From positions 1-23,498 of the IMG/VR virus record IMGVR_UViG_2617270976_000016: 23,498 nucleotides of DNA; one strand, given 5' to 3'. The position numbers and the translations under genes were made by a program. This document shows, in pieces, positions 7,525-23,498 of the stretch. Every line of letters begins with the position of its first letter. Position 1 is the first letter of the stretch. The stretch comes from a virus. Lineage: Duplodnaviria; Heunggongvirae; Uroviricota; Caudoviricetes. The notes under the pieces are model-generated. The model did no database searches and was not told the DNA's origin. It saw only the letters and a list, made by a program, of their open reading frames with translations.

Positions 7525-7901
7525 TTCCAGAACTCCACTTTGACAAAACGACGTTTGAAACGCGAGACAGGAAGGAAGGTAACGTTCACTCCTGGGTTGC
7601 ACTCTGCGACATGCAATTGGCCGTTAATTTCAACGACTACACCAACATGAGTAACGGTTGACCCGGAATAACAGGCGGCACCGGCACCTATACACGGCGC
7701 GCATTTTTCCAGAGAAAGCATGAGCTTTCTGGCCTCTCGGTTTAAACCTCCGCCGTCTTTTGTTATACCTGAAAAATCTGGCCACAGTGGTAGCCCCAGG
7801 TCTTTTCGTACCTCGTTCACTATGCCGAAGCAGTCAAGTTCAGGATAAGTGCGACCGCCCTTCTGCCATATGACAGAAAGGTATTTATCAGGATTGAACA
7901 T
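7521..7901 (-). CDS. NlpC/P60 (C40) peptidase-domain tail protein
   Basis: 126 aa; Cys motif (ELDCFG) and downstream His (THVGVVV) typical of NlpC/P60 catalytic residues; position in tail-tip module. Confidence 0.5.
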   Translation of the reverse strand: MFNPDKYLSVIWQKGGRTYPELDCFGIVNEVRKDLGLPLWPDFSGITKDGGGLNREARKLMLSLEKCAPCIGAGAACYSGSTVTHVGVVVEINGQLHVAECNPGVNVTFLPVSRFKRRFVKVEFWK

Positions 7902-8393: not shown

Positions 8394-8863
8394 GGCTCAG
8401 GCCACTCCCTGTTAAGCGCAATATCAATGATGCTGCTGTTGATAATGTAATCAGGAAAATCAGCCCAGCCAGGAGCCAGAACAGGCCTTTCCCACAATTC
8501 CAACGTGGCCGTGTAGCGCCAGTAGTTTCCGCCTTCAATTGTCGGCCCCTCATAGATATCCACGAAACGACAGACATAAACATCAACAACGCCTAACGGA
8601 GATCGAAGAGGCATGTTAAACCAGTCAGCGCCATCCTTAATGGTGTCCCTGAACCATACCTCAAATAGTTGAGCTTCCGGATCCGTAAGCAGCCATGCAA
8701 CCGAGGCCTGAGTTGGCGTTGAAGTATATAATCTCCTCTGCCTCGCCCTGCCGGATGTGAGTTCGGTTCTCAGTAATGGGCTAACTGGCTTTAACCCGAA
8801 CCCTTCCTGCAATGGAACAGGAAGGTAATCATTCGGATAGTTAATGCTGGTCGTTTTAGCCAT
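8390..8863 (-). CDS. Phage tail protein (distal tail protein-like, immediately after tape measure)
   Basis: 157 aa; start overlaps tape-measure stop as TAATG at 8861-8865. Confidence 0.4.
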   Translation of the reverse strand: MAKTTSINYPNDYLPVPLQEGFGLKPVSPLLRTELTSGRARQRRLYTSTPTQASVAWLLTDPEAQLFEVWFRDTIKDGADWFNMPLRSPLGVVDVYVCRFVDIYEGPTIEGGNYWRYTATLELWERPVLAPGWADFPDYIINSSIIDIALNREWPEP

Positions 8864-10189
8864 TAACCAGTTCTCCTGTTAGTGTTCCAGCGCATCATTG
8901 CTTTCGAAATGTCACCTTTCCCACTGGCAAGGTCGCTGGCTGCCTGTTGATATCCAAGTTTTGCCCCCTCTGCCATGGCTTGCTTCATCATGGAGATCTG
9001 AGTATCAGACGGATCACCGTTAACATTCATGTTAATAACGGGAGAGAAGCTTGCTCCGCTGGTTGATTGTTGATTTACTCTGTCCAGTGTTTCATCAAGC
9101 TTTGCTGACGTCTGAGAGGTCACAACTCGCTCACCTTTCTGGAGCAACCATGTTCCTGTTTCCGGGACGCTATCAATACCATCGTGCGCCATACCTGCCA
9201 GGGCAGAAGTACCAACTGCTGCAACAAGTGGTGCAGTTACTGCCGCAGCTGTTGCCATCGCTGCAGGTGCAAGCGCGGGACCAACGATAGGAATTGCCGC
9301 TGTCGATGCGTATGCTGCGATTTGAGCCTGCAAAGATGATGCCTGTGCGTTTGCCAGCATTGATGCCGCTGCGCTTGCCTGAGTGGATTTACCTACCAGC
9401 AATTGCACTGCCTGATATACCAGCCATTGCGCCGCCATATCAGAAAGGGTTTTAATGATTGTTTCACCAAGACCAGAGAAAATATTACTGAAGAAATCAC
9501 CTAAATCTTCTGCACCGTGCACAAGGTCATTAAGGTTGTCAGAAATAACCGAGGTTGCTCCACCAAGAATAGAAGTCATCGCATCTGCAGCAGTCTGGTA
9601 ATAATCAGCTGATTTATCAGCATAATCATTCAACGAGTCCATTATCCCGCTTTGCCAGTCGCCCATCTGAGCATCAGACTTTTTGTAGTAGTCCTCCTGA
9701 ATATCAAGACGGTCATCAAGCGCCTGCTGTAACGCTGCCGTTTCCTGGTCATAAAGCGATTTGCTTATATCACCACTTTGGTACTGTTTCTGTAGATCTT
9801 GCTGCCTGTCGAGAAAACTACGATGGATATCCAGCAATTCCTTCATGCGCTGGCGAGTCTTGTCTCCCATACCTGCGCCGATAAAATCAGAATCATTAGC
9901 TGCCTGGTCATTCTGATTTTGCTTACGTAAATTAGCGGTAAATTCGACAAGTTTCAGATTTTCTTCGTTGGCTTTTTTAAGTGAGTTGAGGCGATCTATC
10001 TCAGTAGCAAGTTGCTCAAGTCGCTCTTTCTGAGCTGCATTAATTCCTGTTAATTTCCCAGATGTAAAATCAAAACGCAGCTTCTCAAGCTCGGTTAGAG
10101 GCCAAACAGATATCGGAATGGAACGCTGGCATAAACCAGCACAACGAAGTACGCCAGCAATGATATAGCGGGGCGATGTCTTGCCCCTT
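8863..10189 (-). pseudogene. Tail tape-measure protein, 3' remnant (N-terminal part deleted)
   Basis: Ala/Gly-rich hydrophobic C-terminal region typical of tape-measure proteins; frame is open with no start codon from 9870 up to a stop near 10190; first ATG only at 9870; no upstream head or tail-tube genes. Confidence 0.5.
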
Positions 10190-10271
10190 CACGCTGGTAG
10201 AACATCAGGACAAGGACAATGACTGCACAAATACCTGCATTCACCATCGCTGACGGATCACTTGTTACCAT
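10095..10271 (-). CDS. Small two-helix membrane protein (possible holin/antiholin-like)
   Basis: About 58 aa from ATG 10271; two hydrophobic segments; start overlaps the end of the upstream holin-like gene. Confidence 0.3.
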   Translation of the reverse strand: MVTSDPSAMVNAGICAVIVLVLMFYQREGARHRPAISLLAYFVVLVYASVPFRYLFGL

Positions 10272-10653
10272 TGCTGGCCCCTCCTCCACGGAATCGCGAA
10301 AGAATACTGAACAGGCTTCCCAAATCCTGACTGTTGAAAAATGTGAGCACTTTGATTGTCATCGCCGCCACTACAACAGCACCAAGTGCGTCTAATGGTC
10401 TGTCACTATACCCGGTAGCCTGTGACAACTTTGAACCAACCAGGCCAGCAGCAAGAACGCCAACAATGAATGACGTCATGAAGTAAGCAATCAATCGTAC
10501 TCGTGTGATATTTGCCGCTGTCGCTACATAAAATACTGCACCAGCGAATGCGCCAAATACCACGCCATAATCAATACCGGTTGCAAGACCAAATACGCTG
10601 GCTCCCATCAGGCCACCAGCCGCAACCGTAGTGCCAGAAACAGGATCGGACAT
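10258..10653 (-). CDS. Holin-like membrane protein
   Basis: 131 aa from ATG 10653 with strong RBS GAGGGGG; Gly/Ala-rich transmembrane segments; first gene after the Q-proximal cassette. Confidence 0.45.
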   Translation of the reverse strand: MSDPVSGTTVAAGGLMGASVFGLATGIDYGVVFGAFAGAVFYVATAANITRVRLIAYFMTSFIVGVLAAGLVGSKLSQATGYSDRPLDALGAVVVAAMTIKVLTFFNSQDLGSLFSILSRFRGGGASNGNK

Positions 10654-10695
10654 TAAGCCCCCTCTTATTGCTGTGAGTCCTCTCAAAACGAGGGG

Positions 10696-13751: not shown

Positions 13752-14141
13752 TCAGGCGGCTGCACCCGCCACGGTTTCAAATCGGCTGATCGTTATCTCT
13801 ACCCTTCCAGGCTTTACTACAGGCCCCCATTCGATTGCCATCCGTTTAACCTGACTGTCGTCTTCCCAGACTCTGGCATTCGTCAGTGCGTCGAACAGCG
13901 CTTTGTTGTAATTGTCCAGATCCCGCCGTCTGTTATCTGGCGGGAAAAGAACTATGTTTACCTCAACGTTGACGTTAACTGGTTTAGGTATACCGCCGTA
14001 CTGCTCAACAACAGATGCGTAAACGTTCTTCTTGAATTTCCTACCCATCTCACTGATCAGATGCTTACCCTTTAACGCTCCACGGTCAGGTGACCGGTAA
14101 TAGGTGTTAACTGTTGGCGGGAATGGCAGCGTTAATTTCAT
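13752..14141 (-). CDS. rusA: RusA-family Holliday-junction resolvase
   Basis: 129 aa from ATG 14141; motifs LTLPFPPTVNTYY and RRRDLDNYNKALFDALT match RusA; ATGA overlap with upstream ORF. Confidence 0.8.
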   Translation of the reverse strand: MKLTLPFPPTVNTYYRSPDRGALKGKHLISEMGRKFKKNVYASVVEQYGGIPKPVNVNVEVNIVLFPPDNRRRDLDNYNKALFDALTNARVWEDDSQVKRMAIEWGPVVKPGRVEITISRFETVAGAAA

Positions 14142-14428
14142 TGCTGAACACCCCTCGCTTCCAGCCATGACAAGGCGCGTTCTCTTGAATCACTCTCACC
14201 GTTAATGAGTGACTTGATGATCGATATCGCGTCTGCCTCATCATTTCCTGAAATAACGGTGATCCCCCTGGAAACTCCAGGTGCTACTGAGATATATCCC
14301 TTCTTCGCTATATAACCCGTTGAGTTTCTGGCTCCCACCGGATAACCCTGACTGGGACGCCGTAGCTGTCTTTGAACCGTCTGTTGAGTGCTCGCATTCG
14401 ACCTTCTCCACCTGGCCGTTGAAATCAC
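14138..14428 (-). CDS. Hypothetical nin-region protein (possibly 3' part of a frameshifted gene)
   Basis: 96-aa frame whose stop overlaps the rusA start as ATGA; only its C-terminal half looks protein-like. Confidence 0.3.
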   Translation of the reverse strand: MISTARWRRSNASTQQTVQRQLRRPSQGYPVGARNSTGYIAKKGYISVAPGVSRGITVISGNDEADAISIIKSLINGESDSRERALSWLEARGVQQ

Positions 14429-14576
14429 CTACAACCCAATCGGCAAACTGGTAGCAGACAGGCTCAAAGCATCCGGATACCATTACCCCATACACGAACT
14501 GCGCCGGACCTTTTCCACCCGGCATAGGTCGAGCAATAAGTTGCGACCTGCGGTACTGTGTTGTTACACTGTTCAT
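14241..14576 (-). CDS. Hypothetical nin-region protein (possibly 5' part of a frameshifted gene)
   Basis: 111-aa ORF with RBS GGAGA; overlaps the next ORF by about 190 nt in a different frame. Confidence 0.3.
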   Translation of the reverse strand: MNSVTTQYRRSQLIARPMPGGKGPAQFVYGVMVSGCFEPVCYQFADWVVGDFNGQVEKVECEHSTDGSKTATASQSGLSGGSQKLNGLYSEEGIYLSSTWSFQGDHRYFRK

Positions 14577-14637
14577 GCGTTAGTTTCTCCACTGAATACG
14601 ACACGCCACGACGCCAGGAGCTGCACACTCGCTGGCG

Positions 14638-15102
14638 TCACTTCTTTTGACGGCGGCTGAATAAGGCCACAATCGCGCGGATCTCTTCTTCACGTGCTGC
14701 CAAATGACGGCGGTGATGTTCCTGAATCTCTTCGGCTTCATGCTTTTCAATCACTCCATCCTCAAGCGCCTTCTGGATAATCTGATCAACCTGACCTCTT
14801 GCAGCTGCTGTACGCATTGCTCGACTGAACAAGTCAACACGGTCAAGATCTTCCAGGCTTGGTACATCCACCAGCAGCGCACCGCGACGCTTAGCAAAGT
14901 AGTCAGCAACGAATGACGTGTTGGAAATGTCTTCCATCGCTTCCAACTCGGTGACTTCAAAGAAACGACAACCGTTTTTCTCGTAAAGGTTGTTGTTGAA
15001 TTGGGTTTCTGACATGCCCAACGCACCAGCCATAGCTTGACGGCCTCCTGGGTACGCCTTACACATCGCTTTCACTACTTCTTTCAAAGTTTGCTCTACC
15101 AT
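14638..15102 (-). CDS. CII-like / YdaT-like phage regulatory protein
   Basis: 154 aa from ATG 15102 with RBS AAGGA; immediately downstream of cro-like gene, the usual position of cII; charged helical C-terminus. Confidence 0.4.
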   Translation of the reverse strand: MVEQTLKEVVKAMCKAYPGGRQAMAGALGMSETQFNNNLYEKNGCRFFEVTELEAMEDISNTSFVADYFAKRRGALLVDVPSLEDLDRVDLFSRAMRTAAARGQVDQIIQKALEDGVIEKHEAEEIQEHHRRHLAAREEEIRAIVALFSRRQKK

Positions 15103-15127
15103 CTTGTTTTTCCTTTGGTAGTTATGT

Positions 15128-15325
15128 TTAAGCTGCTGTGTCTGTAGACTTTTGGTAAAGGCTGGCATCGTATTTAAGCTTGCCTTTAGTGATACGTTCG
15201 ATAACAAAAGCTTGCTTCTGAGGGATCACATCACCCCATCTGCACACTGCAGGATGGGAAATTCCCAAAACACTCGCGGTTTTTGATACCCCTCCGAAGT
15301 GTTCTATGACGTCAGTTTTAAGCAT
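15128..15325 (-). CDS. Cro-like (YdaS-like) HTH repressor
   Basis: 65 aa; HTH segment (SKTASVLGISHPAVCRW); divergent from cI across an operator-rich intergenic region; RBS GGAGG. Confidence 0.7.
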   Translation of the reverse strand: MLKTDVIEHFGGVSKTASVLGISHPAVCRWGDVIPQKQAFVIERITKGKLKYDASLYQKSTDTAA

Positions 15326-15417: not shown

Positions 15418-16077
15418 ATGAAAACAGAGATGAAAGACCGAATAAGATCCCGGCGAGTCCAGCTCGATATAACTCAGCAGACCCTGGCTAAACGCCTTGG
15501 GGTGAGTAGAGTGTCCGTTACCAAATGGGAGAACGGTACAACTAAGCCTGACGGAGAAAACCTTCACCAACTAGCGATGGCTTTACAGACCACTCCTGAA
15601 TGGATTCTTTACGGCAAGGGTGATGAGACTCAAGATGACACCAAAGTTATCCCATACCTGAAGCCACCTACCGCCGTTCCTATTATCTCTGCTGTTCAGG
15701 CCGGGGTATGGACTGATACCTATGCATGCTCAAGGCTTACTGATGTGATTTCATGGACTCAAACCACAGCAAACGTTTCTGATGAAGTTTTCGGATTGGT
15801 GGTTCGTGGTGAGTCAATGACTAACCCACATGGACTTCCATCAATTCCGGAGGGCTCAATCGTTATTGTTGAGCCACATTACGGACAACTTGATGACCTG
15901 TATGGGAAAATTGTCGTAGCAATACTTGATGGTTCAGCAGAAGCGACTGTGAAGAAACTTGTTTGGGATAGCCCTTACTCATATCTCATGCCGCTTAATC
16001 CCGCCTTTAAGCCGATCCCCATTGATGGCAATTGCCGCATTGTAGGAAAAGTTGTTCAGATAACGCAGAACATCTAA
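15418..16077 (+). CDS. CI-type prophage repressor (N-terminal HTH, C-terminal LexA-like S24 peptidase domain)
   Basis: 219 aa; HTH (QQTLAKRLGVSRVSVTKWENG) and S24-like C-terminus (GESM…, VVKK…) read from translation. Confidence 0.85.
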   Translation: MKTEMKDRIRSRRVQLDITQQTLAKRLGVSRVSVTKWENGTTKPDGENLHQLAMALQTTPEWILYGKGDETQDDTKVIPYLKPPTAVPIISAVQAGVWTDTYACSRLTDVISWTQTTANVSDEVFGLVVRGESMTNPHGLPSIPEGSIVIVEPHYGQLDDLYGKIVVAILDGSAEATVKKLVWDSPYSYLMPLNPAFKPIPIDGNCRIVGKVVQITQNI

Positions 16078-16090
16078 GTAACTCATTTCT

Positions 16091-16120
16091 AATGCCAGAT
16101 ATCATTCTGGCATTTTTTTC
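16091..16120 (+). terminator. Intrinsic terminator after cI
   Basis: Stem AATGCCAGA/TCTGGCATT with 6-nt loop followed by TTTTTTT. Confidence 0.5.
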
Positions 16121-16126
16121 GCCTTC

Positions 16127-16184
16127 AAGGTAACAAAAAGTACATTAACTTACTTGACCGTCATGGTAACTAAAGGTACATTTA
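16127..16184. promoter_or_regulatory. OL-like operator region with candidate rightward early promoter (-35 TTGACC 16154-16159, -10 TACATT 16177-16182)
   Basis: Two copies of the OR operator motif (16127-16147 matches 20 of 21; 16163-16184 GGTAACTAAAGGTACATTT) overlapping the hexamers. Confidence 0.5.
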
Positions 16185-16281: not shown

Positions 16282-16709
16282 AGGGAGCATAAGGCGGTCG
16301 CGGTAAGCATCTCGCAGGGTTCTTACCGGGACTGGAAGAGTTACCACTTGGAGACGGTCCTTTTAAATGTCCTGGACAGTGGCGCTTTGGTCGCGATAAC
16401 AACCACTCCAGTTGATCCTGGGAGTTATCAGGTCAGTGAGATGCCAGCACTCTCGACGGCAGTGACAGCCGGAAGTAGACGGCGCAGCCCAGACGATATC
16501 TGAGTGGCTATAAAAACAGATGGACGTCGGTGGAATCCCGACAAATGGGTTTCATGTACCGAATGAACACATGATGACGCGGGGAAAGAACCGTGACAGG
16601 AGGGAAGTAGACCCCGCGAACACAACAGGTAAGAGCATTTGTATGTTGGCTGTGATTGTTAAGTCTATCGCAACGCCAAGATTGAAAATAATGCAGTGCT
16701 CTTACCGTT

Positions 16710-16786
16710 GTGGCATTAGCTCAGTTGGATAGAGCAACGGCCTTCTAAGCCGTGGGGCGCAGGTTCGAATCCTGCATGCTGCACCA
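16710..16786 (+). tRNA. Phage-borne tRNA-Arg, anticodon UCU
   Basis: Cloverleaf traced by hand: D-stem GCTC/GAGC, anticodon stem ACGGC/GCCGT with loop CTTCTAA, T-stem GCAGG/CCTGC with TTCGAAT loop, 3' ACCA; acceptor stem has two G-U pairs. Confidence 0.8.
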
Positions 16787-16840
16787 GAATCACGTAGCCA
16801 GTGTGGTACCAGGAAGTAAGAAAGCTGTGTGGAGTCTTGG

Positions 16841-16884
16841 CGGTACCAGTACCAACCTTTGAAGTCCCTGGTACCGCCCTTTTT
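16841..16884 (+). terminator. Hairpin plus T-run downstream of tRNA-Arg (probable terminator)
   Basis: 9-bp stem GGCGGTACC/GGTACCGCC followed by CTTTTT; palindromic GGTACC occurs three times in 16805-16875. Confidence 0.35.
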
Positions 16885-16885
16885 A

Positions 16886-16968
16886 CTCAACTGAAAGCGC
16901 GTTCTGTCCCTTGTCATTAAGTGCCAGGTCGTTAAATCCAAAACCAGCGGAACGCGCTTTCAATTGAG
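16886..16968. repeat. 19-bp imperfect inverted repeat around a 45-bp spacer
   Basis: CTCAACTGAAAGCGCGTTC (16886-16904) pairs with GAACGCGCTTTCAATTGAG (16950-16968), one mismatch. Confidence 0.6.
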
Positions 16969-17116
16969 TGGAGAAACTAACCGGCGATTGCAGTCGCCCG
17001 TTTCACTAAGTGCCTCTTCATGGGGCATTTACTGAAACGAAACCAAAACTTTTATTCGCCTTTTGGCGAGGGATTCGTGCAACCAAAATTCAGCGGATTT
17101 TTCCACTGGAGGACTA

Positions 17117-17272
17117 ATGAACCACCTCGAATTTATTGAGAAGAACGTAAGGGAAATCCTTATTAAACAAGGTTTTTCCTCTTCAGTGGCTCAGGGGGGG
17201 CATGGCAAGCACTTGATTTATATAAGCGAATGTCACAAGCCAGTAAAAAAGGCGCGATTTTTGACGATGTGA
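17117..17272 (+). CDS. Small hypothetical protein (51 aa)
   Basis: ATG at 17117 preceded by GGAGG (short 4-nt spacing); no family recognised. Confidence 0.25.
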   Translation: MNHLEFIEKNVREILIKQGFSSSVAQGGHGKHLIYISECHKPVKKARFLTM

Positions 17273-17429
17273 TGAGGCATGCAAAAGCCTGGGCAGATAA
17301 GCAGGTTTCAAAGTCCGAAGTCACAAAAAGAAAACGTGCCCAACCTAAAGACCAAGGTGGCCTCTTTTAAGTATCAAGGCCAAAGAATTCAGCGCCGTGC
17401 AGGGCGCATAAAACACGGAGAAACTAACC

Positions 17430-17912
17430 ATGACGACCACACAGAATGTCACTGAGTTACAACCACGTATGACCAGAGAGCAACTGATCGATGCAGCGCG
17501 TAAAGCCGCCCCTCTCCTTCCGGTTGCTTACCGCGGGATCATGACCGAACTGGCTAACCGTCTTGATATCGTCAGCGTGGCGCTTTGCGAGTCAATGGAA
17601 CAGCGTAAAGCACTGGCCATCGAGAACACCGTTTTACGAGACGATGTTAATTGTTGGGCCAAAGAGTGCGACCGCATCGTTGAACGTCATACCAAATCGC
17701 CGACCAATATGCACATGCTGGAGGCGCAGAGAGAATTACGCGAGCTAACTCCAGTAACCGATCAGGTTATTCGCGATATCCAGGCCACTGGCGTGGAAAA
17801 GTACGCAAACGTCACTATTGCCATAGGGAAAGAAGAGCAAGAAGAAAGCATTGTTTACGCTGGTAATCAGGCTCTGTTATTCGCTAACCAACTTCGTGAA
17901 GGTACTGCGTAA
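17430..17912 (+). CDS. Hypothetical early protein (first gene of early operon)
   Basis: 160 aa; RBS GGAGA; stop overlaps next start as TAATG. Confidence 0.4.
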   Translation: MTTTQNVTELQPRMTREQLIDAARKAAPLLPVAYRGIMTELANRLDIVSVALCESMEQRKALAIENTVLRDDVNCWAKECDRIVERHTKSPTNMHMLEAQRELRELTPVTDQVIRDIQATGVEKYANVTIAIGKEEQEESIVYAGNQALLFANQLREGTA

Positions 17913-18952
17913 TGGCCGCCAACTCATTCAAACAGATGTCCCGTGACGGGACCATCAAGCGCACCGATACCGGGATGTTTATTAGCCTTGAACATATCCA
18001 CGTGCGTGAAGGTTTCAACAAGCGTGAAGACGACGAACGCACACGCCAGGCAGATGACGAACTGTTTAACTATCTGATGAACGGCGGTACCGTTCCTCCA
18101 CTGGAGGTTATCGCACGCGATGAAGGCGGTGTGTGGGTTGTTGAGGGTCACCGCCGTCGCCGTTGCTATGCGCGTTGTGCTGAAGCAGGTAAGCCAGTAG
18201 ACCGCATTCATATCATGCCTTTCAACGGTAACGATGTGCAGCGTCTGGCTCGCATCATGACCAGTAATAACCAACTCCCCCTTTCCGATATTGAACAGGC
18301 TGCTGTTATTCAGGAGCTTCATAATGCTTTCAACCAGACCACCAGCGAGATTGCAAAGCTGGTCAATAAGTCTGTAGCGACCGTTGAGAAGTTGCTCACT
18401 CTGAGCACCGCTAATTATGACGTTCAGCAGGAAGTTAAATCTGGTGCCGTATCTGTTGATGTTGCTGTTGACCGCGTTCGCGAGTTTGGCGAACAAGCTG
18501 GTGAGGTTCTCCAGCACGATAAAGCCGTAGCCGCCGCCCAGGGAAAAACAAAGGTTACGCGCAGTTCTATCGCGCCTGAACTCAACATTAAAAGTGCTCG
18601 CCGTTTTGTGGAGTTAATGGCCATGGCGACGATTAGCGATGAAGGCGTGTTCACTTTGCAAGGCACGGCACTGGCTGAAGCTCTGGCGATCATCGACGAA
18701 CATAAAACCATTGCTGAAGCTCGCGAAACCTATCGCCTTTCACAGCCAATCCCTACTACAGAAATTATCGGGAAGGTGCTGTATGTGAAGCTGGACGGTA
18801 AGGAAATCGGCTCGGCAATAATTTATCGCGGTAAGAACGTCACGCTCGACCTAGGTGATAGAAAAATAATCGCCAGCCAGTCAAAAGCAGTGGCCCACTT
18901 CGTTAAACAACACAAACTTCAGCAGGTACATACCAATGCAAACGATCAATAA
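17912..18952 (+). CDS. ParB/Srx-like nuclease-domain protein
   Basis: 346 aa; N-terminal ParB-like motif region (VVEGHRRRRCYA); translationally coupled to neighbours. Confidence 0.5.
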   Translation: MAANSFKQMSRDGTIKRTDTGMFISLEHIHVREGFNKREDDERTRQADDELFNYLMNGGTVPPLEVIARDEGGVWVVEGHRRRRCYARCAEAGKPVDRIHIMPFNGNDVQRLARIMTSNNQLPLSDIEQAAVIQELHNAFNQTTSEIAKLVNKSVATVEKLLTLSTANYDVQQEVKSGAVSVDVAVDRVREFGEQAGEVLQHDKAVAAAQGKTKVTRSSIAPELNIKSARRFVELMAMATISDEGVFTLQGTALAEALAIIDEHKTIAEARETYRLSQPIPTTEIIGKVLYVKLDGKEIGSAIIYRGKNVTLDLGDRKIIASQSKAVAHFVKQHKLQQVHTNANDQ

Positions 18953-19508
18953 CCGTATGACAGAAACTCAAATTGCTGATCTCTTCAGCCTGGCGGTTCA
19001 GTTGCAGGTTAAAGCTGAAGAATCAGATGATCGTGATACTGCAATTTTGGCCTACTCAATTCAAAACGCCTGCTCAAATTTAACGGAATCCCAGCGCGAG
19101 TTCCGTGCAGCAGACGCGACTATTCACAATCTGGAACTGAAAATCACAGAGATGGCAGTACAGCTAGCTAACGCCGATAGCAAGTGCAGGGAGCTGGCGG
19201 GGGTAGTTGCTGAGAACGCTGATTTAAAATCTCTGATTGAACAACATGCAGCCTCTATCGCTGTATGTCCTAACTGCTCACACGAAGAGCCAAGCGAAAC
19301 TGACGACATCGTTGCGCTTTATCGCTCAATGGAAACCCCAGCCACCGACGCTTTCCTGGCTGAAGTGCGGACGCAGGGTGTGGAAGGATTCTTGAAGTTT
19401 TGCGGTGAGGAAAATTCCGTATTTGTCGAGGCTAAAGCTTACTACCGGTCGCTATCGGATGCGGTTGATGAGTTCGCCGCCCGACTTCGCAAAGGAGCCG
19501 CTCTATGA
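18936..19508 (+). CDS. Hypothetical coiled-coil protein (Ea22-like by context)
   Basis: 190 aa, or slightly shorter from ATG 18957; central heptad-like helical region; CPNC motif. Confidence 0.35.
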   Translation: MQTINNRMTETQIADLFSLAVQLQVKAEESDDRDTAILAYSIQNACSNLTESQREFRAADATIHNLELKITEMAVQLANADSKCRELAGVVAENADLKSLIEQHAASIAVCPNCSHEEPSETDDIVALYRSMETPATDAFLAEVRTQGVEGFLKFCGEENSVFVEAKAYYRSLSDAVDEFAARLRKGAAL

Positions 19509-20158
19509 GCAACCGATTCTACATGCTGTGTACACGAGAAACTGTCGGGAACAACGCGTCATTCCACTGCCACAACGGAAACGGGTATAGCTCAAACATC
19601 GACCGCGCTCACGTGTATACCCGCGAAGAGGCACAACACAGCTGGGATTTAGGCAGAGAGATTGATCAGCCAGTTTGCGCAGCCAGCGTTGATTCCTTGG
19701 CTACCTGGCATGTCGACTGCCAGTACATTCCTGCTGAAAGTGTTATTGAGCCCGGATGCGAGGCCTACGTGGCCTACAAAAAAGGAAGCTGGAACGGCAA
19801 CGATGTGTACTGGCTGCAACATGGCGGACTTCCAACAGATGACTTCAGTAAGGCATTCATTTTTGTTTCCGCTAACACAGCGGAGCCTGGAATTGTCTGG
19901 ATTCCTTTTTCCTTGGCTGACAAGGCTAAGCGCCGCACATTCAGCATCAATGAATTTAATCGCCGCACCATGGTACAGGCGGCAGGGCTGGTTATGCCTG
20001 AATGGTTGAAAAAACAAAACCGCAGGAAAAAGGCACGAAGTGGCAAGGTCCGCTGGAATTGTCCGCACTGCGGAAAAATCAGTTGGCAGTACAACCCATA
20101 TGATTTTGATGGTTGCCGCGACTACTCATGCGAAGGATGGAGGCCAAATGACAACTAA
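19505..20158 (+). CDS. Hypothetical protein with C-terminal Zn-ribbon-like Cys cluster
   Basis: 217 aa; C-terminal CPHCG…C…C; ATGA overlap with upstream gene. Confidence 0.4.
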   Translation: MSNRFYMLCTRETVGNNASFHCHNGNGYSSNIDRAHVYTREEAQHSWDLGREIDQPVCAASVDSLATWHVDCQYIPAESVIEPGCEAYVAYKKGSWNGNDVYWLQHGGLPTDDFSKAFIFVSANTAEPGIVWIPFSLADKAKRRTFSINEFNRRTMVQAAGLVMPEWLKKQNRRKKARSGKVRWNCPHCGKISWQYNPYDFDGCRDYSCEGWRPNDN

Positions 20159-20741
20159 CAACCACCCGGCGAACGGTCCTGTATCACTCGATCGCCTGCA
20201 CCAGATACGCGAAATACTCAGCAAAGCAGCAGCACAAAGCGATGGCGGTAATCTCGGCTACGCAATGGCTGATGCTGTGAAGGTGATTGATGGGATGATT
20301 TCTCGCGAACTGGTACGCCGTGAACATGCAGCATGGTCACTGGCTACTTTCGGCGATGTCGGTCCAGTTGGTCCGCTAAAGCACCTTTCCAAAGAAGCGC
20401 TCGAGGCTGCTGCTGAACCCGGCGACCTTAGCGAATGGGCTGACATGCAATTCCTGTTATGGGATGCGCAACGTCGTGCCGGTATCAGTGACGAGCAGCT
20501 TACCCAGGCGATGGTGGAAAAGTTGGCGGTTAACAAACAGCGCGAATGGCCTGAGCCGAAAGACGGTGAGCCAAGGCTACATATCAAGGAATCCGACAAC
20601 TCGTTTGTGGCTCCGGAGGGGACGGCCTGCAAATACTGCGGCGGTACAGGTTATTTCCGTTGGAAAAAATCCGCAAATACCTTCCCGTGTCCATGTATGG
20701 GATGCGATTTGCCAGCAGCACCTCTGCAGGAGGTGAAGTGA
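20148..20741 (+). CDS. DUF550-type (MazG-like dATP/dGTP pyrophosphohydrolase-domain) protein with C-terminal Zn-ribbon
   Basis: 197 aa from ATG 20148 (RBS GGAGG); N-terminus MTTNNHPANGPVSLDRLHQIRE matches my recollection of DUF550 prophage proteins; C-terminal CKYCGG…CPC. Confidence 0.5.
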   Translation: MTTNNHPANGPVSLDRLHQIREILSKAAAQSDGGNLGYAMADAVKVIDGMISRELVRREHAAWSLATFGDVGPVGPLKHLSKEALEAAAEPGDLSEWADMQFLLWDAQRRAGISDEQLTQAMVEKLAVNKQREWPEPKDGEPRLHIKESDNSFVAPEGTACKYCGGTGYFRWKKSANTFPCPCMGCDLPAAPLQEVK

Positions 20742-20827
20742 TGCCGCCAGTTAAAGTGGTTGTTATTACCGTGGTGATGCTAGCGATCTGCCAGTTAGTT
20801 TCTATGACGGGATATGGCATATGGTGA
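20741..20827 (+). CDS. Possible 28-aa hydrophobic peptide (MPPVKVVVITVVMLAICQLVSMTGYGIW)
   Basis: ATG overlaps upstream stop (TGATG) and its own stop overlaps the next ATG; single TM-like segment; not in the ORF track because it is too short. Confidence 0.25.
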   Translation: MPPVKVVVITVVMLAICQLVSMTGYGIW

Positions 20828-21099
20828 GCAAGCTAAAACAGCGTCGCATACGCCGACTGAAAGCCGATGTAGCATGGTGGAAATCTGAAGCTGAGTACTG
20901 TAAGGCGCGAGTGTTCGAACAGGCAAACGAAATTGCTGAACTAAGAAGCATGGTGATTCGTGTACCAATGCCGGTAATGGTGCCAGTAGAGATACTTCAT
21001 CAGCTAAATGGGAAGGGATCGAAAGAATATCCATTATGTCGCAATTGCAACGATGGAACCCGTCACGGGTGTTCATCGTGTGCTTACAGAATGAAGTAA
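20821..21099 (+). CDS. Hypothetical small protein with coiled-coil N-terminus and C-terminal 4-Cys cluster
   Basis: 92 aa; CRNC…GCSSC pattern. Confidence 0.4.
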   Translation: MVSKLKQRRIRRLKADVAWWKSEAEYCKARVFEQANEIAELRSMVIRVPMPVMVPVEILHQLNGKGSKEYPLCRNCNDGTRHGCSSCAYRMK

Positions 21100-21132
21100 C
21101 CGGGTGCAGCCGGTTTAAGTGGAGAACTAACT

Positions 21133-21360
21133 ATGAGCGGACAAATCCAACGTTTTCTTACTCCAGATGACCTCTATCAATTAACTGGTTATCGTCGCCC
21201 TTCCCTACAGTGTAAAGCTCTGAGGGATAGTGGGGTATTTTTTATCCCACGCAAGGACGGAAGGCCAGGAACAACATGGGATCATGTATCAAACCCTGTT
21301 GGACTTAAGTTAATAGTGAGCAATCCAGAGGAAGAAGAACCAAACTTTAAGGATATGTAA
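21133..21360 (+). CDS. DUF4224-like protein, putative excisionase / recombination directionality factor
   Basis: 75 aa; motif LTPDDLYQLTGY; stop overlaps integrase start as TAATG. Confidence 0.5.
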   Translation: MSGQIQRFLTPDDLYQLTGYRRPSLQCKALRDSGVFFIPRKDGRPGTTWDHVSNPVGLKLIVSNPEEEEPNFKDM

Positions 21361-22370
21361 TGTCTAGAGCTCGCAAAAACCCTGAGGATAACTGGATGCC
21401 TCCTCGCGTTCGACGGGGAAAATCTGCTTATGAGTTTCGTACAACAGATGGTCGTACCGTCAGGTTGTGCAATCCTGATCTAACAAAATCGCAGGTATGG
21501 GCAGCTTACGAAAACTTCATAAACGATTTAAAGGTTGGTACGAACTTCAACGCACTTTGTGAAGAATTCTTTAATTCCGGTGATTTCCACGAGTTAGCAA
21601 CTGAAACACGTAAAGACTACAGAAAATACGGTTCAAAGGTAAATGTTGTCTTCGGGAAAATGAAGCCGGATAACATCAAGCCAGAGCACATCAGAAAATA
21701 TATGGATAAACGAGGTGTTAAGAGCAGGGTTCAGGCAAACCGCGAGAAAGCATTTATGTCCAGGGTGTTTCGGTGGGCATACGAACGAGGAAAGGTGAAG
21801 ATGAATCCTTGCCAGGGCGTAAAGCAATTTAAAGAGCAGGCTCGGACCCGTTATATTAGCGATAGGGAATATGATGCACTTTATAGCGTTGCTTCTATTC
21901 CCGTAAAAGTTGCAATGGAGTTGGCATATCTATGTTGCGCCCGCCAGGGAGACATTCTTGACCTCAAAAAGAGTCAATTATTGAGCGAAGGAATTTTAAT
22001 TCAGCAGAGTAAAACCGCAGTTAGCCAGATCAAGGCCTGGACAAAACGTCTGGAGGATGCCGTTAATCTTGCTGACAGCATTCCTCTTAACAGCGGGATG
22101 GTAAGTATTTTTGTCATCCACCAGCCATCAGGTCTGCGATACACACGCGATGCTTTTAATGCGCAATGGATGAAGACTAAAAAACTTGCTGCTGAAAAAT
22201 ATCCAGACCTTGATTTCCAGTTCACTTTTCATGATCTAAAAGCCAAAGGAATTTCTGATCTTGAAGGTACGTTAAGTGAGAAGCAGGAAATTTCAGGTCA
22301 TAAAAACGCCTCGCAAACAGCGAGATATAATCGAAGAATTTCAGTTGTTCCGGTCGTCGGGGGGCAGTAA
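21360..22370 (+). CDS. int: Tyrosine-type phage integrase
   Basis: 336 aa; C-terminal catalytic region with HDLK and H…ARY motifs; adjacent to a tRNA gene. Confidence 0.9.
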   Translation: MSRARKNPEDNWMPPRVRRGKSAYEFRTTDGRTVRLCNPDLTKSQVWAAYENFINDLKVGTNFNALCEEFFNSGDFHELATETRKDYRKYGSKVNVVFGKMKPDNIKPEHIRKYMDKRGVKSRVQANREKAFMSRVFRWAYERGKVKMNPCQGVKQFKEQARTRYISDREYDALYSVASIPVKVAMELAYLCCARQGDILDLKKSQLLSEGILIQQSKTAVSQIKAWTKRLEDAVNLADSIPLNSGMVSIFVIHQPSGLRYTRDAFNAQWMKTKKLAAEKYPDLDFQFTFHDLKAKGISDLEGTLSEKQEISGHKNASQTARYNRRISVVPVVGGQ

Positions 22371-22495: not shown

Positions 22496-22582
22496 TGGTA
22501 CCCGGAGTGGGACTTGAACCCACACAGCGCGAACGCCGAGGGATTTTAAATCCCTTGTGTCTACCGATTCCACCATCCGGGC
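22496..22582 (-). tRNA. leuZ: tRNA-Leu, anticodon UAA
   Basis: 87-nt minus-strand sequence matches my recollection of E. coli leuZ, long variable arm, 3' CCA encoded. Confidence 0.95.
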
Positions 22583-22949: not shown

Positions 22950-23498
22950 TCACTGATCAAGCAAATCTGCACGCGCAGCGCTCAAATATTGCAACATTGA
23001 CCACAGAGTCAGTACCGCAGCCACAAAGAAAAGTGCAATACCGGCGTACTCAACCCAAATGTTCGGACGCCACAGCAGCCAGGCCAACGCCACCATCTGG
23101 GCCGTAGTTTTCACTTTCCCAATCCAGGAGACAGCCACGCTACTGCGTTTACCCAACTCCGCCATCCATTCGCGTAGCGCAGAAATAATAATTTCACGGG
23201 CGATCATCGTTGCCGCCGGTAAGGTCACCCACCAGCTGTGATAATGCTCGGTTACCAGCACCATGGCGATAGCCACGAGAACTTTATCTGCGACAGGGTC
23301 AAGGAAAGCACCAAACCGGGTACTCTGGTTCCAGCGGCGTGCCAGAAAACCATCGAACCAGTCAGTCACCGCCGCGACGCAGAAAATGAGCGCGGCGGCA
23401 AACGGCGACCAGGTGACAGGCAGATAAAAGACCAATACAAAGAATGGGATAAGGATGACACGGAACAGTGTAAGCAACGTAGGGATATTAAATTGCAT
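22950..23498 (-). CDS. pgsA: CDP-diacylglycerol--glycerol-3-phosphate 3-phosphatidyltransferase
   Basis: 182-aa translation matches E. coli PgsA as I recall it; conserved pgsA-glyW-cysT-leuZ synteny. Confidence 0.95.

Follow-up and report, generated by a model that had tools for sequence, protein, structure and literature searches.

A non-canonical ParB-fold DNA-binding protein in the early-left operon of a lambda-like prophage

Several mobile elements carry orphan ParB-fold proteins, among them KorB, BisD and HerB, that are nucleotide-dependent DNA clamps regulating transcription. KorB of plasmid RK2 is a cytidine triphosphate (CTP)-dependent sliding clamp and repressor that works with the small partners KorA and TrbA and also serves partition together with IncC/ParA. 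BisD of ICEclc and HerB (YfjB) of the F-plasmid leading region are made early in the active phase of their elements and reprogram transcription, and BisD needs a small partner, BisC. Here, we analyze a related locus in a 23,498-nucleotide (nt) stretch of DNA from a virus of the Caudoviricetes (IMG/VR record IMGVR_UViG_2617270976_000016, positions 1 to 23,498), which we call the window and which is a lambda-like prophage with tRNA-Leu(taa) as its insertion site. A sequence-only reading of this DNA had pointed to three open reading frames (ORFs) at 17430-17912, 17912-18952 and 18936-19508, all of which we found (features are on the + strand unless stated otherwise). We refer to the first as g1, a gene of 160 amino acids (aa), and to the second, of 346 aa, as the ParB-like gene. 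Its product is a bona fide, non-canonical ParB-fold DNA-binding protein of a catalogued phage family. We tentatively read it, as something slightly short of probable, as an orphan (ParA-less) nucleotide-gated DNA clamp that would regulate or organize DNA at an early stage of the phage cycle and, in the enterobacterial subgroup, would do so with g1.

With KorB, the protein shares a ParB N-domain together with a helix-turn-helix (HTH) domain on a mobile element, and KorB is among its best structural matches; g1 may be an analogue of KorA and TrbA. The two proteins differ in that identity is only ~20%, the C-terminal domain is another one, and the protein described here has GHRR and T-S motifs; no KorB operator-like palindrome and no ParA were found here. 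BisD and HerB are likewise orphan ParB folds with an HTH on a mobile element and a lineage-specific C-terminal domain. HerB is related at the superfamily level only (hhalign probability 96.6 over the N-domain and HTH, nothing by BLASTP), the likeness to BisD is drawn from its description, and the host element here is a phage. For gp34 of mEp390 and PHROG_1033, named "ParB-like partition protein", the relationship is one of direct membership with no substantive difference.

Fold, domains and nucleotide pocket of the ParB-like protein

The ParB-like protein matches PHROG_1033 at E 2.2e-83, with residues 2-296 aligned to profile positions 14-326 of 334. Its AlphaFold2 (AF2) model, built from a 76-sequence alignment, reached a predicted local distance difference test score (pLDDT) of 93.5 and a predicted template modeling score (pTM) of 0.80, with pLDDT values of 94-98 over the N-domain (residues 1 to ~120). 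The best Foldseek matches of this model, all at probability 1.0, were M. xanthus ParB-CTPγS (7bnr), the KorB-KorA complex (8qa9, template modeling score 0.68 when normalized to the target), Noc (7nfu) and C. crescentus ParB (6t1f); PadC was likewise matched at probability 1.0. When compared with the PDB, the family profile retrieved T. thermophilus Spo0J/ParB (E 2e-16) and KorB (E 2e-8), and single-sequence searches tied residues 42-188 to ParB (TIGR00180 at 1e-10, below its cut-off, and H. pylori Spo0J at 1e-4). The N-terminal ParB-like motif noted in the sequence-only reading corresponds to box II, G79-H80-R81-R82, encoded at 18146-18157. The ParB fold, which that reading proposed to look for in a predicted structure, is present both in the model and by profile search.

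The ParB/Srx nucleotide-binding N-domain comprises residues 1-123 (17912-18280; AF2, Foldseek and the PDB profile) and is followed by a ParB-type HTH DNA-binding domain at residues 124-222 (18281-18577). This second domain carries a match to HTH_ParB (PF17762) on residues 124-182 (E 1.2e-6, 29.1 bits versus a cut-off of 22.6) and aligns in fold with the domains by which ParB and KorB bind DNA. From the AF2 model and the alignment, residues 223-277 (18578-18742) form a helix, a short hairpin and a long helix, and residues 278-346 (18743-18949) form a small five-strand beta unit with a terminal helix. The conserved core of the family stops near residue 222; residues 223-277, a candidate dimerization region, also occur in 275-aa short forms, and residues 278-346 occur in long forms only. 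The C-terminal 125 residues (222-346) gave no Pfam match and no meaningful structural neighbor, and Foldseek against BFVD returned nothing at E<1e-3. The "unassigned C-terminal domain" described previously is thus an accurate label for residues ~223-346, while the ParB-type HTH at residues ~124-222 had been overlooked.

Relative to its homologs, the ParB-like gene has ratios of nonsynonymous to synonymous substitution rates (dN/dS) of 0.03-0.06 over residues 1-222, 0.03-0.11 over residues 223-277 and 0.13-0.27 over residues 278-346, and the N-terminal part of g1 has 0.04-0.23, all from comparisons at a dS of about 1, where synonymous sites are near saturation. Both are real genes, and the core is under purifying selection.

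These results bear on the earlier suggestion that the protein is a nuclease or a counter-defense factor, cutting DNA or neutralizing host defense. The gene is on a phage and in an early operon, and ParB folds are frequent on mobile elements, where fusions to methyltransferases have been proposed to be anti-defense factors (PMC12704722). Neither Pfam, NCBIfam nor the fold search detected a nuclease domain or motif, however, and "nuclease-domain" is no more than the name that Pfam historically gave this fold. Some ParB/Srx-fold proteins do have reported nuclease or ATPase activity. PADLOC matched no defense model (no family at E ≤0.1), and NCBIfam and PADLOC offered no functional name other than ParB. 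Moreover, the architecture is that of the site-specific DNA-binding ParB, KorB and Noc proteins, the core dN/dS (0.03-0.06) is unlike that of fast-changing arms-race genes, and the gene has no consistent defense or anti-defense neighbors, those of distant relatives being replication and recombination genes. Our literature search for a tested function of the PHROG_1033 family, or for a link to escape from defense systems, found none. We therefore consider a nuclease or counter-defense role improbable and keep to that of a DNA clamp.

The nucleotide pocket departs from canonical ParB in a pattern shared by the 76 diverse relatives. Box II of the family reads (D/E)-G-H-R-R, in which G79 is kept in 75/76 and R82 in 76/76 sequences, and the Glu of GERR is replaced by His80 in 73/76, giving GHRR. 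At box III, T117-S118 (56/76 and 72/76, respectively) stand at the Glu-Asn of canonical ENLQR. Box I reads FN36-K-R38, with F-N-x-R conserved and the canonical QPR Gln position variable (E39), although the alignment of this loop is uncertain. Mutation of the box II arginine abolishes nucleoside triphosphate (NTP) binding across the fold (PMC12704722), as with BisD R95A (PMC12409273). Box III is often divergent in orphan ParB folds, and the preferred nucleotide of divergent ParB folds (CTP, ATP or GTP) is not predictable from sequence or AlphaFold3 (PMC12704722). The CTP-hydrolysis residues of canonical ParB, namely the box I Gln, the GERR Glu and the ENLQR Glu-Asn, are not kept in the ParB-like protein. 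Since these catalytic residues are replaced, the switch would be expected to hydrolyze slowly or to proceed by another route, and its nucleotide may not be CTP.

Chromosomal ParB/Spo0J and Noc thus share with this protein the N-domain fold, the HTH and the box II Gly and Arg, but differ in box I QPR, the GERR Glu and E-N, all replaced here, and in the C-terminal region, which is unrelated and did not match the ParB C-terminal dimerization domain. The ParA-binding motif (L/F/I)G(K/R)G(L/F/I), including its LG(K/R)GL form, occurs neither in the protein nor in any of its 76 aligned relatives. No ParA was found among the Pfam matches of the larger ORFs of the window, beside the gene in 82 related loci, or in annotated phages. 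The curated cut-off of TIGR00180 was not reached (41.4 versus 58.45 bits), and a search of the window for canonical parS, TGTTNCACGTGAAACA, gave one match with three mismatches, distant at 7761, where 1.16 are expected by chance. Judged from these sequence features, the ParB-like protein is not a partition ParB.

A role in maintaining or partitioning an extrachromosomal (plasmid) prophage, possibly by nucleoid tethering, is suggested by the names given to the family, "chromosome partitioning protein ParB" at NCBI and "ParB-like partition protein" in PHROGs. It is also suggested by pJBIWA002_3 of Enterobacter asburiae (NZ_CP074176.1, 39,563 bp), which was deposited as a circular plasmid and whose ParB-like protein is 84% identical to that of the window. 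This element has cI, cro, cII, the g1-ParB pair and full virion genes, with no annotated integrase or excisionase, and may be either a plasmid prophage or an induced phage that the assembly picked up. As a single integrase-less element that may be an induced or defective phage in an assembly, and with the PLSDB gene table incomplete, it is offset by the window prophage and most relatives, which are integrated at tRNA-Leu with xis-int. Together with the missing ParA, ParA-binding motif and parS and the sub-threshold TIGR00180 score, this makes plasmid maintenance decidedly improbable next to an orphan clamp.

The g1 partner and the structured leader

Residues 1 to ~110 of g1 (PHROG match of the gene, E 4e-61) are a conserved partner (phrog_14171), and its C-terminal part is Ea22-like (phrog_492). 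In 79/82 related loci, the coding sequence for these ~110 N-terminal residues immediately precedes the ParB-like gene; of the three others, two end at a contig edge and one has a 5′-truncated ParB gene. The repressor, cro and downstream genes vary among these 82 loci while the g1-ParB pair stays. The same pair is found in the isolated coliphage mEp390 as gp35-gp34, in the same early-left position and with gp34 87% identical to the ParB-like protein. We found no Pfam match, no match to solved structures in the PDB and no enzyme signature for g1.

This constancy is relevant to the proposal that the protein activates or recruits a DNA-modifying enzyme, in the manner of the ParB partners of phage thymine dioxygenases. 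A phage ParB homolog activates its cognate 5mYOX thymine dioxygenase (PMC13229309), and DNA methyltransferases are found among the early-operon genes of relatives. The known activators lack an HTH, though (PMC13229309), whereas the ParB-like protein has a DNA-binding domain, and the gene has no modifying enzyme next to it or consistently linked with it, g1 being its sole constant neighbor. Enzyme activation is accordingly the least probable of the roles that we considered, and a clamp acting with g1 is preferred.

Upstream of g1 lies a non-coding leader of ~290 nt in total, whose first part spans 16837-17095 and whose last part spans 17386-17429; in most relatives, 17095 joins 17386 directly. 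The module opens with an intrinsic-terminator-like hairpin at 16837-16884, an 11-bp stem followed by CUUUUUA, which a simple terminator scan did not list. Its stem varies yet pairs in relatives (GGCGGTACCAG/CTGGTACCGCC versus GGCGGTCG/CGACCGCC). The last part contains a GCGCC-GUGCAG-GGCGC hairpin (17392-17407) and then the cassette GGAGAAACTAACC, which occurs twice in the leader, at 16970 and 17417, the latter copy being the ribosome-binding site (RBS) of g1. The leader retains 72-98% nucleotide identity across loci with different immunity regions, folds with a minimum free energy of -108 kcal/mol (z -7.6 versus shuffled sequences) and shows compensatory changes at nine base pairs among 28 sequences. 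In the window, it is interrupted by a 290-bp insertion (17096-17385) that is missing from most related loci, is flanked by AATTCAGCG at both ends and holds a small ORF, apparently frameshift-broken at a G run (17193-17200); some relatives carry a different insertion of ~440 bp elsewhere in the same leader. In the Pseudomonas phages LESphi3 and MD8, the ParB-like gene is likewise preceded by a long complementary leader. The leader, g1 and the ParB-like gene are a co-inherited block in Enterobacteriaceae. The sequence-only reading missed the pairing with g1 and the conserved leader.

The hairpin at 17392-17407 is one of four 16-bp elements in the window with 5-bp GC-rich arms around N-TGCA-N, the others being at 13755-13770 (- sense), 16983-16998 and 21099-21114; 0.13 are expected, and 0/300 shuffles reached four. 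On the transcribed strand they are hairpins whose loop reads (G/U)UGCAG. Three occupy gene junctions, immediately 5′ of a GGAGA-type RBS, and that at 16983 follows the leader-internal cassette copy. Across 74 related loci, 12 distinct stems carry the same loop, all in sense orientation (operon directions as read), and none of these hairpins matched Rfam. We considered the TGCA palindromes as a binding site of the ParB-like protein and rejected them: the arms differ and covary and the loops are strand-oriented, so the elements look like an RNA-level signal, for instance a protein-binding, processing or boxB-like one, rather than a DNA site.

Family contexts, Chi sites and the proposed role

An exhaustive search returned 1,913 representatives (50% identity clusters) at E ≤1e-3, so PHROG_1033 is a large and widespread family that is already catalogued. 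The ParB-like gene lies in an early operon in every annotated phage (mEp390, LESphi3, MD8, BZS1, Eta, Gungnir39 and Klebsiella phi5.2), and distant homologs (30-65% identity) lack g1, yet are in early operons as well. In LESphi3 and MD8, the homolog is first in the early-left operon. Elsewhere it is flanked by a RecE-like exonuclease and RecT in Erwinia phage Gungnir39, and by the single-strand DNA-binding protein SSB and RusA/helicase in Serratia phage Eta. In Klebsiella phi5.2 it lies between cII and O/P, directly before O/P; in a plasmid-borne Pantoea prophage it follows a Gp157-family gene, and in FoX3 it is near a Holliday-junction resolvase and a primase. The description of MD8 leaves its ParB-like gene unexplained (PMC8508860). 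A 2025 analysis of lambdoid phages describes very distant ParB relatives, of unknown function, from a small number of early-left regions and, sometimes, from early-right operons (PMC12315714).

All seven Chi sites (GCTGGTGG) of the window are on the - strand (7/7 versus 0.74 expected), at 10613, 12510, 12781, 14868, 18339, 22118 and 23229; the site at 18339 is inside the ParB-like gene and that at 23229 is in host pgsA. By gene-order mapping, this is the "top" strand of the lambda map, which is putatively the active one. The same strand bias is seen in 80 related IMG/VR loci (407 versus 20), in pJBIWA002_3 (19 versus 0) and, for Pseudomonas Chi sites, around the ParB-like genes of LESphi3 (8:1) and MD8 (11:0). 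Among 52 non-redundant clusters of early-left ORFs, a Pfam census revealed no RecT, Bet, Erf, YqaJ or Gam. With the Chi bias and no Rec genes, these phages fall in the "no Rec module, many Chi" class, which includes MD8 among its listed phages (PMC12315714). The link between Chi and the ParB-like gene may be only phylogenetic, because Rec-positive carriers of distant homologs exist.

From the fold, the pocket and the early position, we picture the following sequence of events for a clamp. The protein would dimerize through its C-terminal part, its HTH domain would recognize a specific DNA site, and an NTP in the GxxR pocket of the N-domain would switch it between open and DNA-entrapping closed states. 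Soon after infection or induction it would regulate or organize phage (or host) DNA, and in Enterobacteriaceae it would probably do so with the g1 product in a role like that of KorA or BisC.

Several observations weigh against this picture. We found no candidate parS-like site by palindrome, repeat, synonymous-constraint or cross-phage searches. A synonymous conservation scan over 67 distinct ParB-like coding sequences gave no clear signal (lowest window 0.22 versus a mean of 0.69), palindromes common to the window, mEp390 and pJBIWA002_3 lie in homologous DNA only, and palindrome inventories of the window and of the regions upstream of distant homologs held no common site. Box III is T-S in place of the E-N of canonical ParB, and Asn-to-Ser at this position abolishes CTP binding in B. 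subtilis ParB. In a survey of purified ParB-fold proteins, 17/28 did not bind NTP in vitro (PMC12704722). The g1 partner is limited to relatives of at least about 84% identity; distant homologs have other upstream genes, and no g1 homolog was found beside distant ParB-like genes, so g1 is not essential to the core function of the family. Lastly, the neighbors of distant homologs (RecE-like exonuclease, RecT, SSB, RusA, helicase, O/P) would fit replication or recombination at least as well as transcription.

This last point favors a DNA-transaction accessory, which with g1 would bind replicating phage DNA and support replication or recombination and not regulate transcription. In this phage class, such a function may tie to host RecBCD/Chi use in place of a phage Rec module, for example by controlling RecBCD access or by organizing concatemers. 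In addition to the neighbors in Gungnir39, Eta, Klebsiella phi5.2, Pantoea and FoX3, the one-strand Chi bias in the window and its relatives and the lack of Rec genes in the 52 clusters are in its favor. The association is not strict, however, as Gungnir39 and Klebsiella phi5.2 have both a homolog and Rec genes, and the co-occurrence with Chi may reflect shared phage ancestry. We know of no ParB-fold protein with an accessory role in replication or recombination. ParB-like genes have been considered as possible early-left DNA-transaction genes, but they are also found in early-right operons, unlike true Rec genes (PMC12315714). On this evidence we regard an accessory role as a possible but unlikely account and retain the regulatory or organizing clamp as our tentative choice.

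The operon and prophage around the locus

Upstream of the leader, the window has a lambda-like immunity region consisting of a cI-like S24 repressor gene (15418-16077) and, on the - strand, cro-like (15128-15325) and cII/CP76-like (14638-15207) genes, all called from Pfam and PHROG matches. The cI-like gene is followed by a terminator (16091-16114) and then by putative left operators and a pL-like promoter (16120-16184). A 29-nt operator-like repeat, CGCCTTxAAGGTAACAAAAGGTACATTAA, occurs in three copies, one between cI and cro (15346) and two 3′ of cI (16120 and 16156), and the second downstream copy overlaps a promoter-like TTGACC-17-TACATT at 16154-16182. By analogy, 16120-16184 would be the equivalent of lambda OL/pL, and the + strand genes from there to the integrase would therefore form the early-left operon. 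The only promoter-like site with operators is thus 1.25 kb upstream of g1, with the terminator-like hairpin and the structured leader in between. Since transcripts from pL must cross this terminator-like structure, the immediate expression on induction proposed previously is not established.

A phage-borne tRNA-Arg(tct) gene at 16710-16786 (ARAGORN; Rfam tRNA, 68.9 bits) sits within this early-left leader region, between the pL-like promoter and the terminator-like hairpin. Just 3′ of the promoter, 16298-16400 is 89% identical to a region of mEp390 annotated as gp36, although the repressors of the window and mEp390 are only ~51% identical. The corresponding frame in the window has no start codon, and the segment is either a gene remnant or a conserved RNA or DNA element, possibly one acting in antitermination. 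An Rfam match to the prophage small RNA AgvB at 16066-16118 is sub-threshold (30.9 bits versus a gathering score of 56, E 0.01) and overlaps the terminator that follows cI, whose hairpin is probably all it reflects.

The ParB-like gene is within an early-left operon that ends in xis-int, as had been described. It overlaps g1 by 1 nt (TAATG) and is followed by g3 (18936-19508, 190 aa), an ead/Ea22-like coiled-coil protein (phrog_492, E 7e-23) that overlaps it by 17 nt, or leaves a 4-nt gap if g3 starts at ATG 18957, and that is a variable neighbor, replaced or diverged in related loci. The next gene, g4 (19505-20158, 217 aa; phrog_2457, E 1.6e-108), overlaps g3 by 4 nt (ATGA), has a Cys-rich C-terminus, gave no match to solved structures and is present in few related loci only. 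Gene g5 (20148-20741, 197 aa), of the dATP/dGTP pyrophosphohydrolase family (PF04447, E 2e-41), overlaps g4 by 11 nt and starts at ATG 20148 and not at GTG 20040, the PHROG match beginning at residue 37 of the GTG-started ORF. The apparent gap of 79 nt between g5 and g6 (20821-21099, 92 aa, phrog_14816) is occupied by a 28-codon hydrophobic ORF at 20741-20827 (MPPVKVVVITVVMLAICQLVSMTGYGIW) whose overlaps are 1 nt with g5 and 7 nt with g6. This small ORF is intact with conservative substitutions in related loci and likely encodes a small membrane peptide. A 33-nt spacer between g6 and xis, the only real spacer of the operon, holds the ACCGG-GUGCAG-CCGGU hairpin (21099-21114) followed by GGAGAACTAACT-ATG of the excisionase gene xis (21133-21360), which overlaps the tyrosine integrase gene (int, 21360-22370) by 1 nt (TAATG); both genes were assigned from Pfam and PHROG matches. 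With the overlaps as read and the small ORF, missed previously, filling the gap between g5 and g6, the earlier view of a translationally coupled operon joined by stop-start overlaps holds at every junction except g6/xis.

Beyond int lies the tRNA-Leu(taa) attachment site (22496-22582). ARAGORN calls and comparison with E. coli TST3 show that tRNA-Cys, tRNA-Gly and pgsA adjoin the insertion site, and E. coli TST3 likewise has xis-int-tRNA-Leu beside pgsA. Citrobacter freundii is the source of the closest proteins to those of the window. A search of the window for an attL copy of the tRNA-Leu end found none. The prophage is defective: Q and a holin gene (10258-10686) give way, across a short gap, to a tape-measure gene truncated to a 335-aa C-terminal fragment (8863-9870), and no lysis-completion, terminase, head or tail-tube genes were seen among the Pfam matches of the ORFs in the window. 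Between cII and a small LexA-family-like gene with rusA (region 13752-15207), we found no O/P-type replication genes. Near the start of the window, a low-GC (31-35%) gene for an AT3 acyltransferase with an SGNH domain (888-2849) adjoins the tail-spike gene and looks like an O-antigen-modifying moron. A DinI-family gene (319-561) has overlapping CTGT/ACAG palindromes upstream (272-303) that resemble LexA boxes.

The window itself adds no principle beyond membership in the family, and its interest is that of the family. Recent work has shown that orphan ParB folds on mobile elements, namely KorB, BisD and HerB, are CTP-switch clamps exerting long-range control over transcription; we know of no characterized member from an integrating phage. 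Going further, the leader, g1 and the ParB-like gene may constitute a self-contained system in which a hydrolysis-altered clamp on phage DNA is tied to a Chi-rich lambdoid lifestyle without a Rec module. We think this quite unlikely; if true, the clamp could gate RecBCD/Chi-dependent recombination or organize replicating genomes, a role known, to our knowledge, for no ParB-fold protein so far. The family is large, strongly constrained and distinctive in its catalytic-site pattern, and mEp390 gp34/gp35 provide a tractable model. Working out this family would show how a temperate phage uses the ParB switch.

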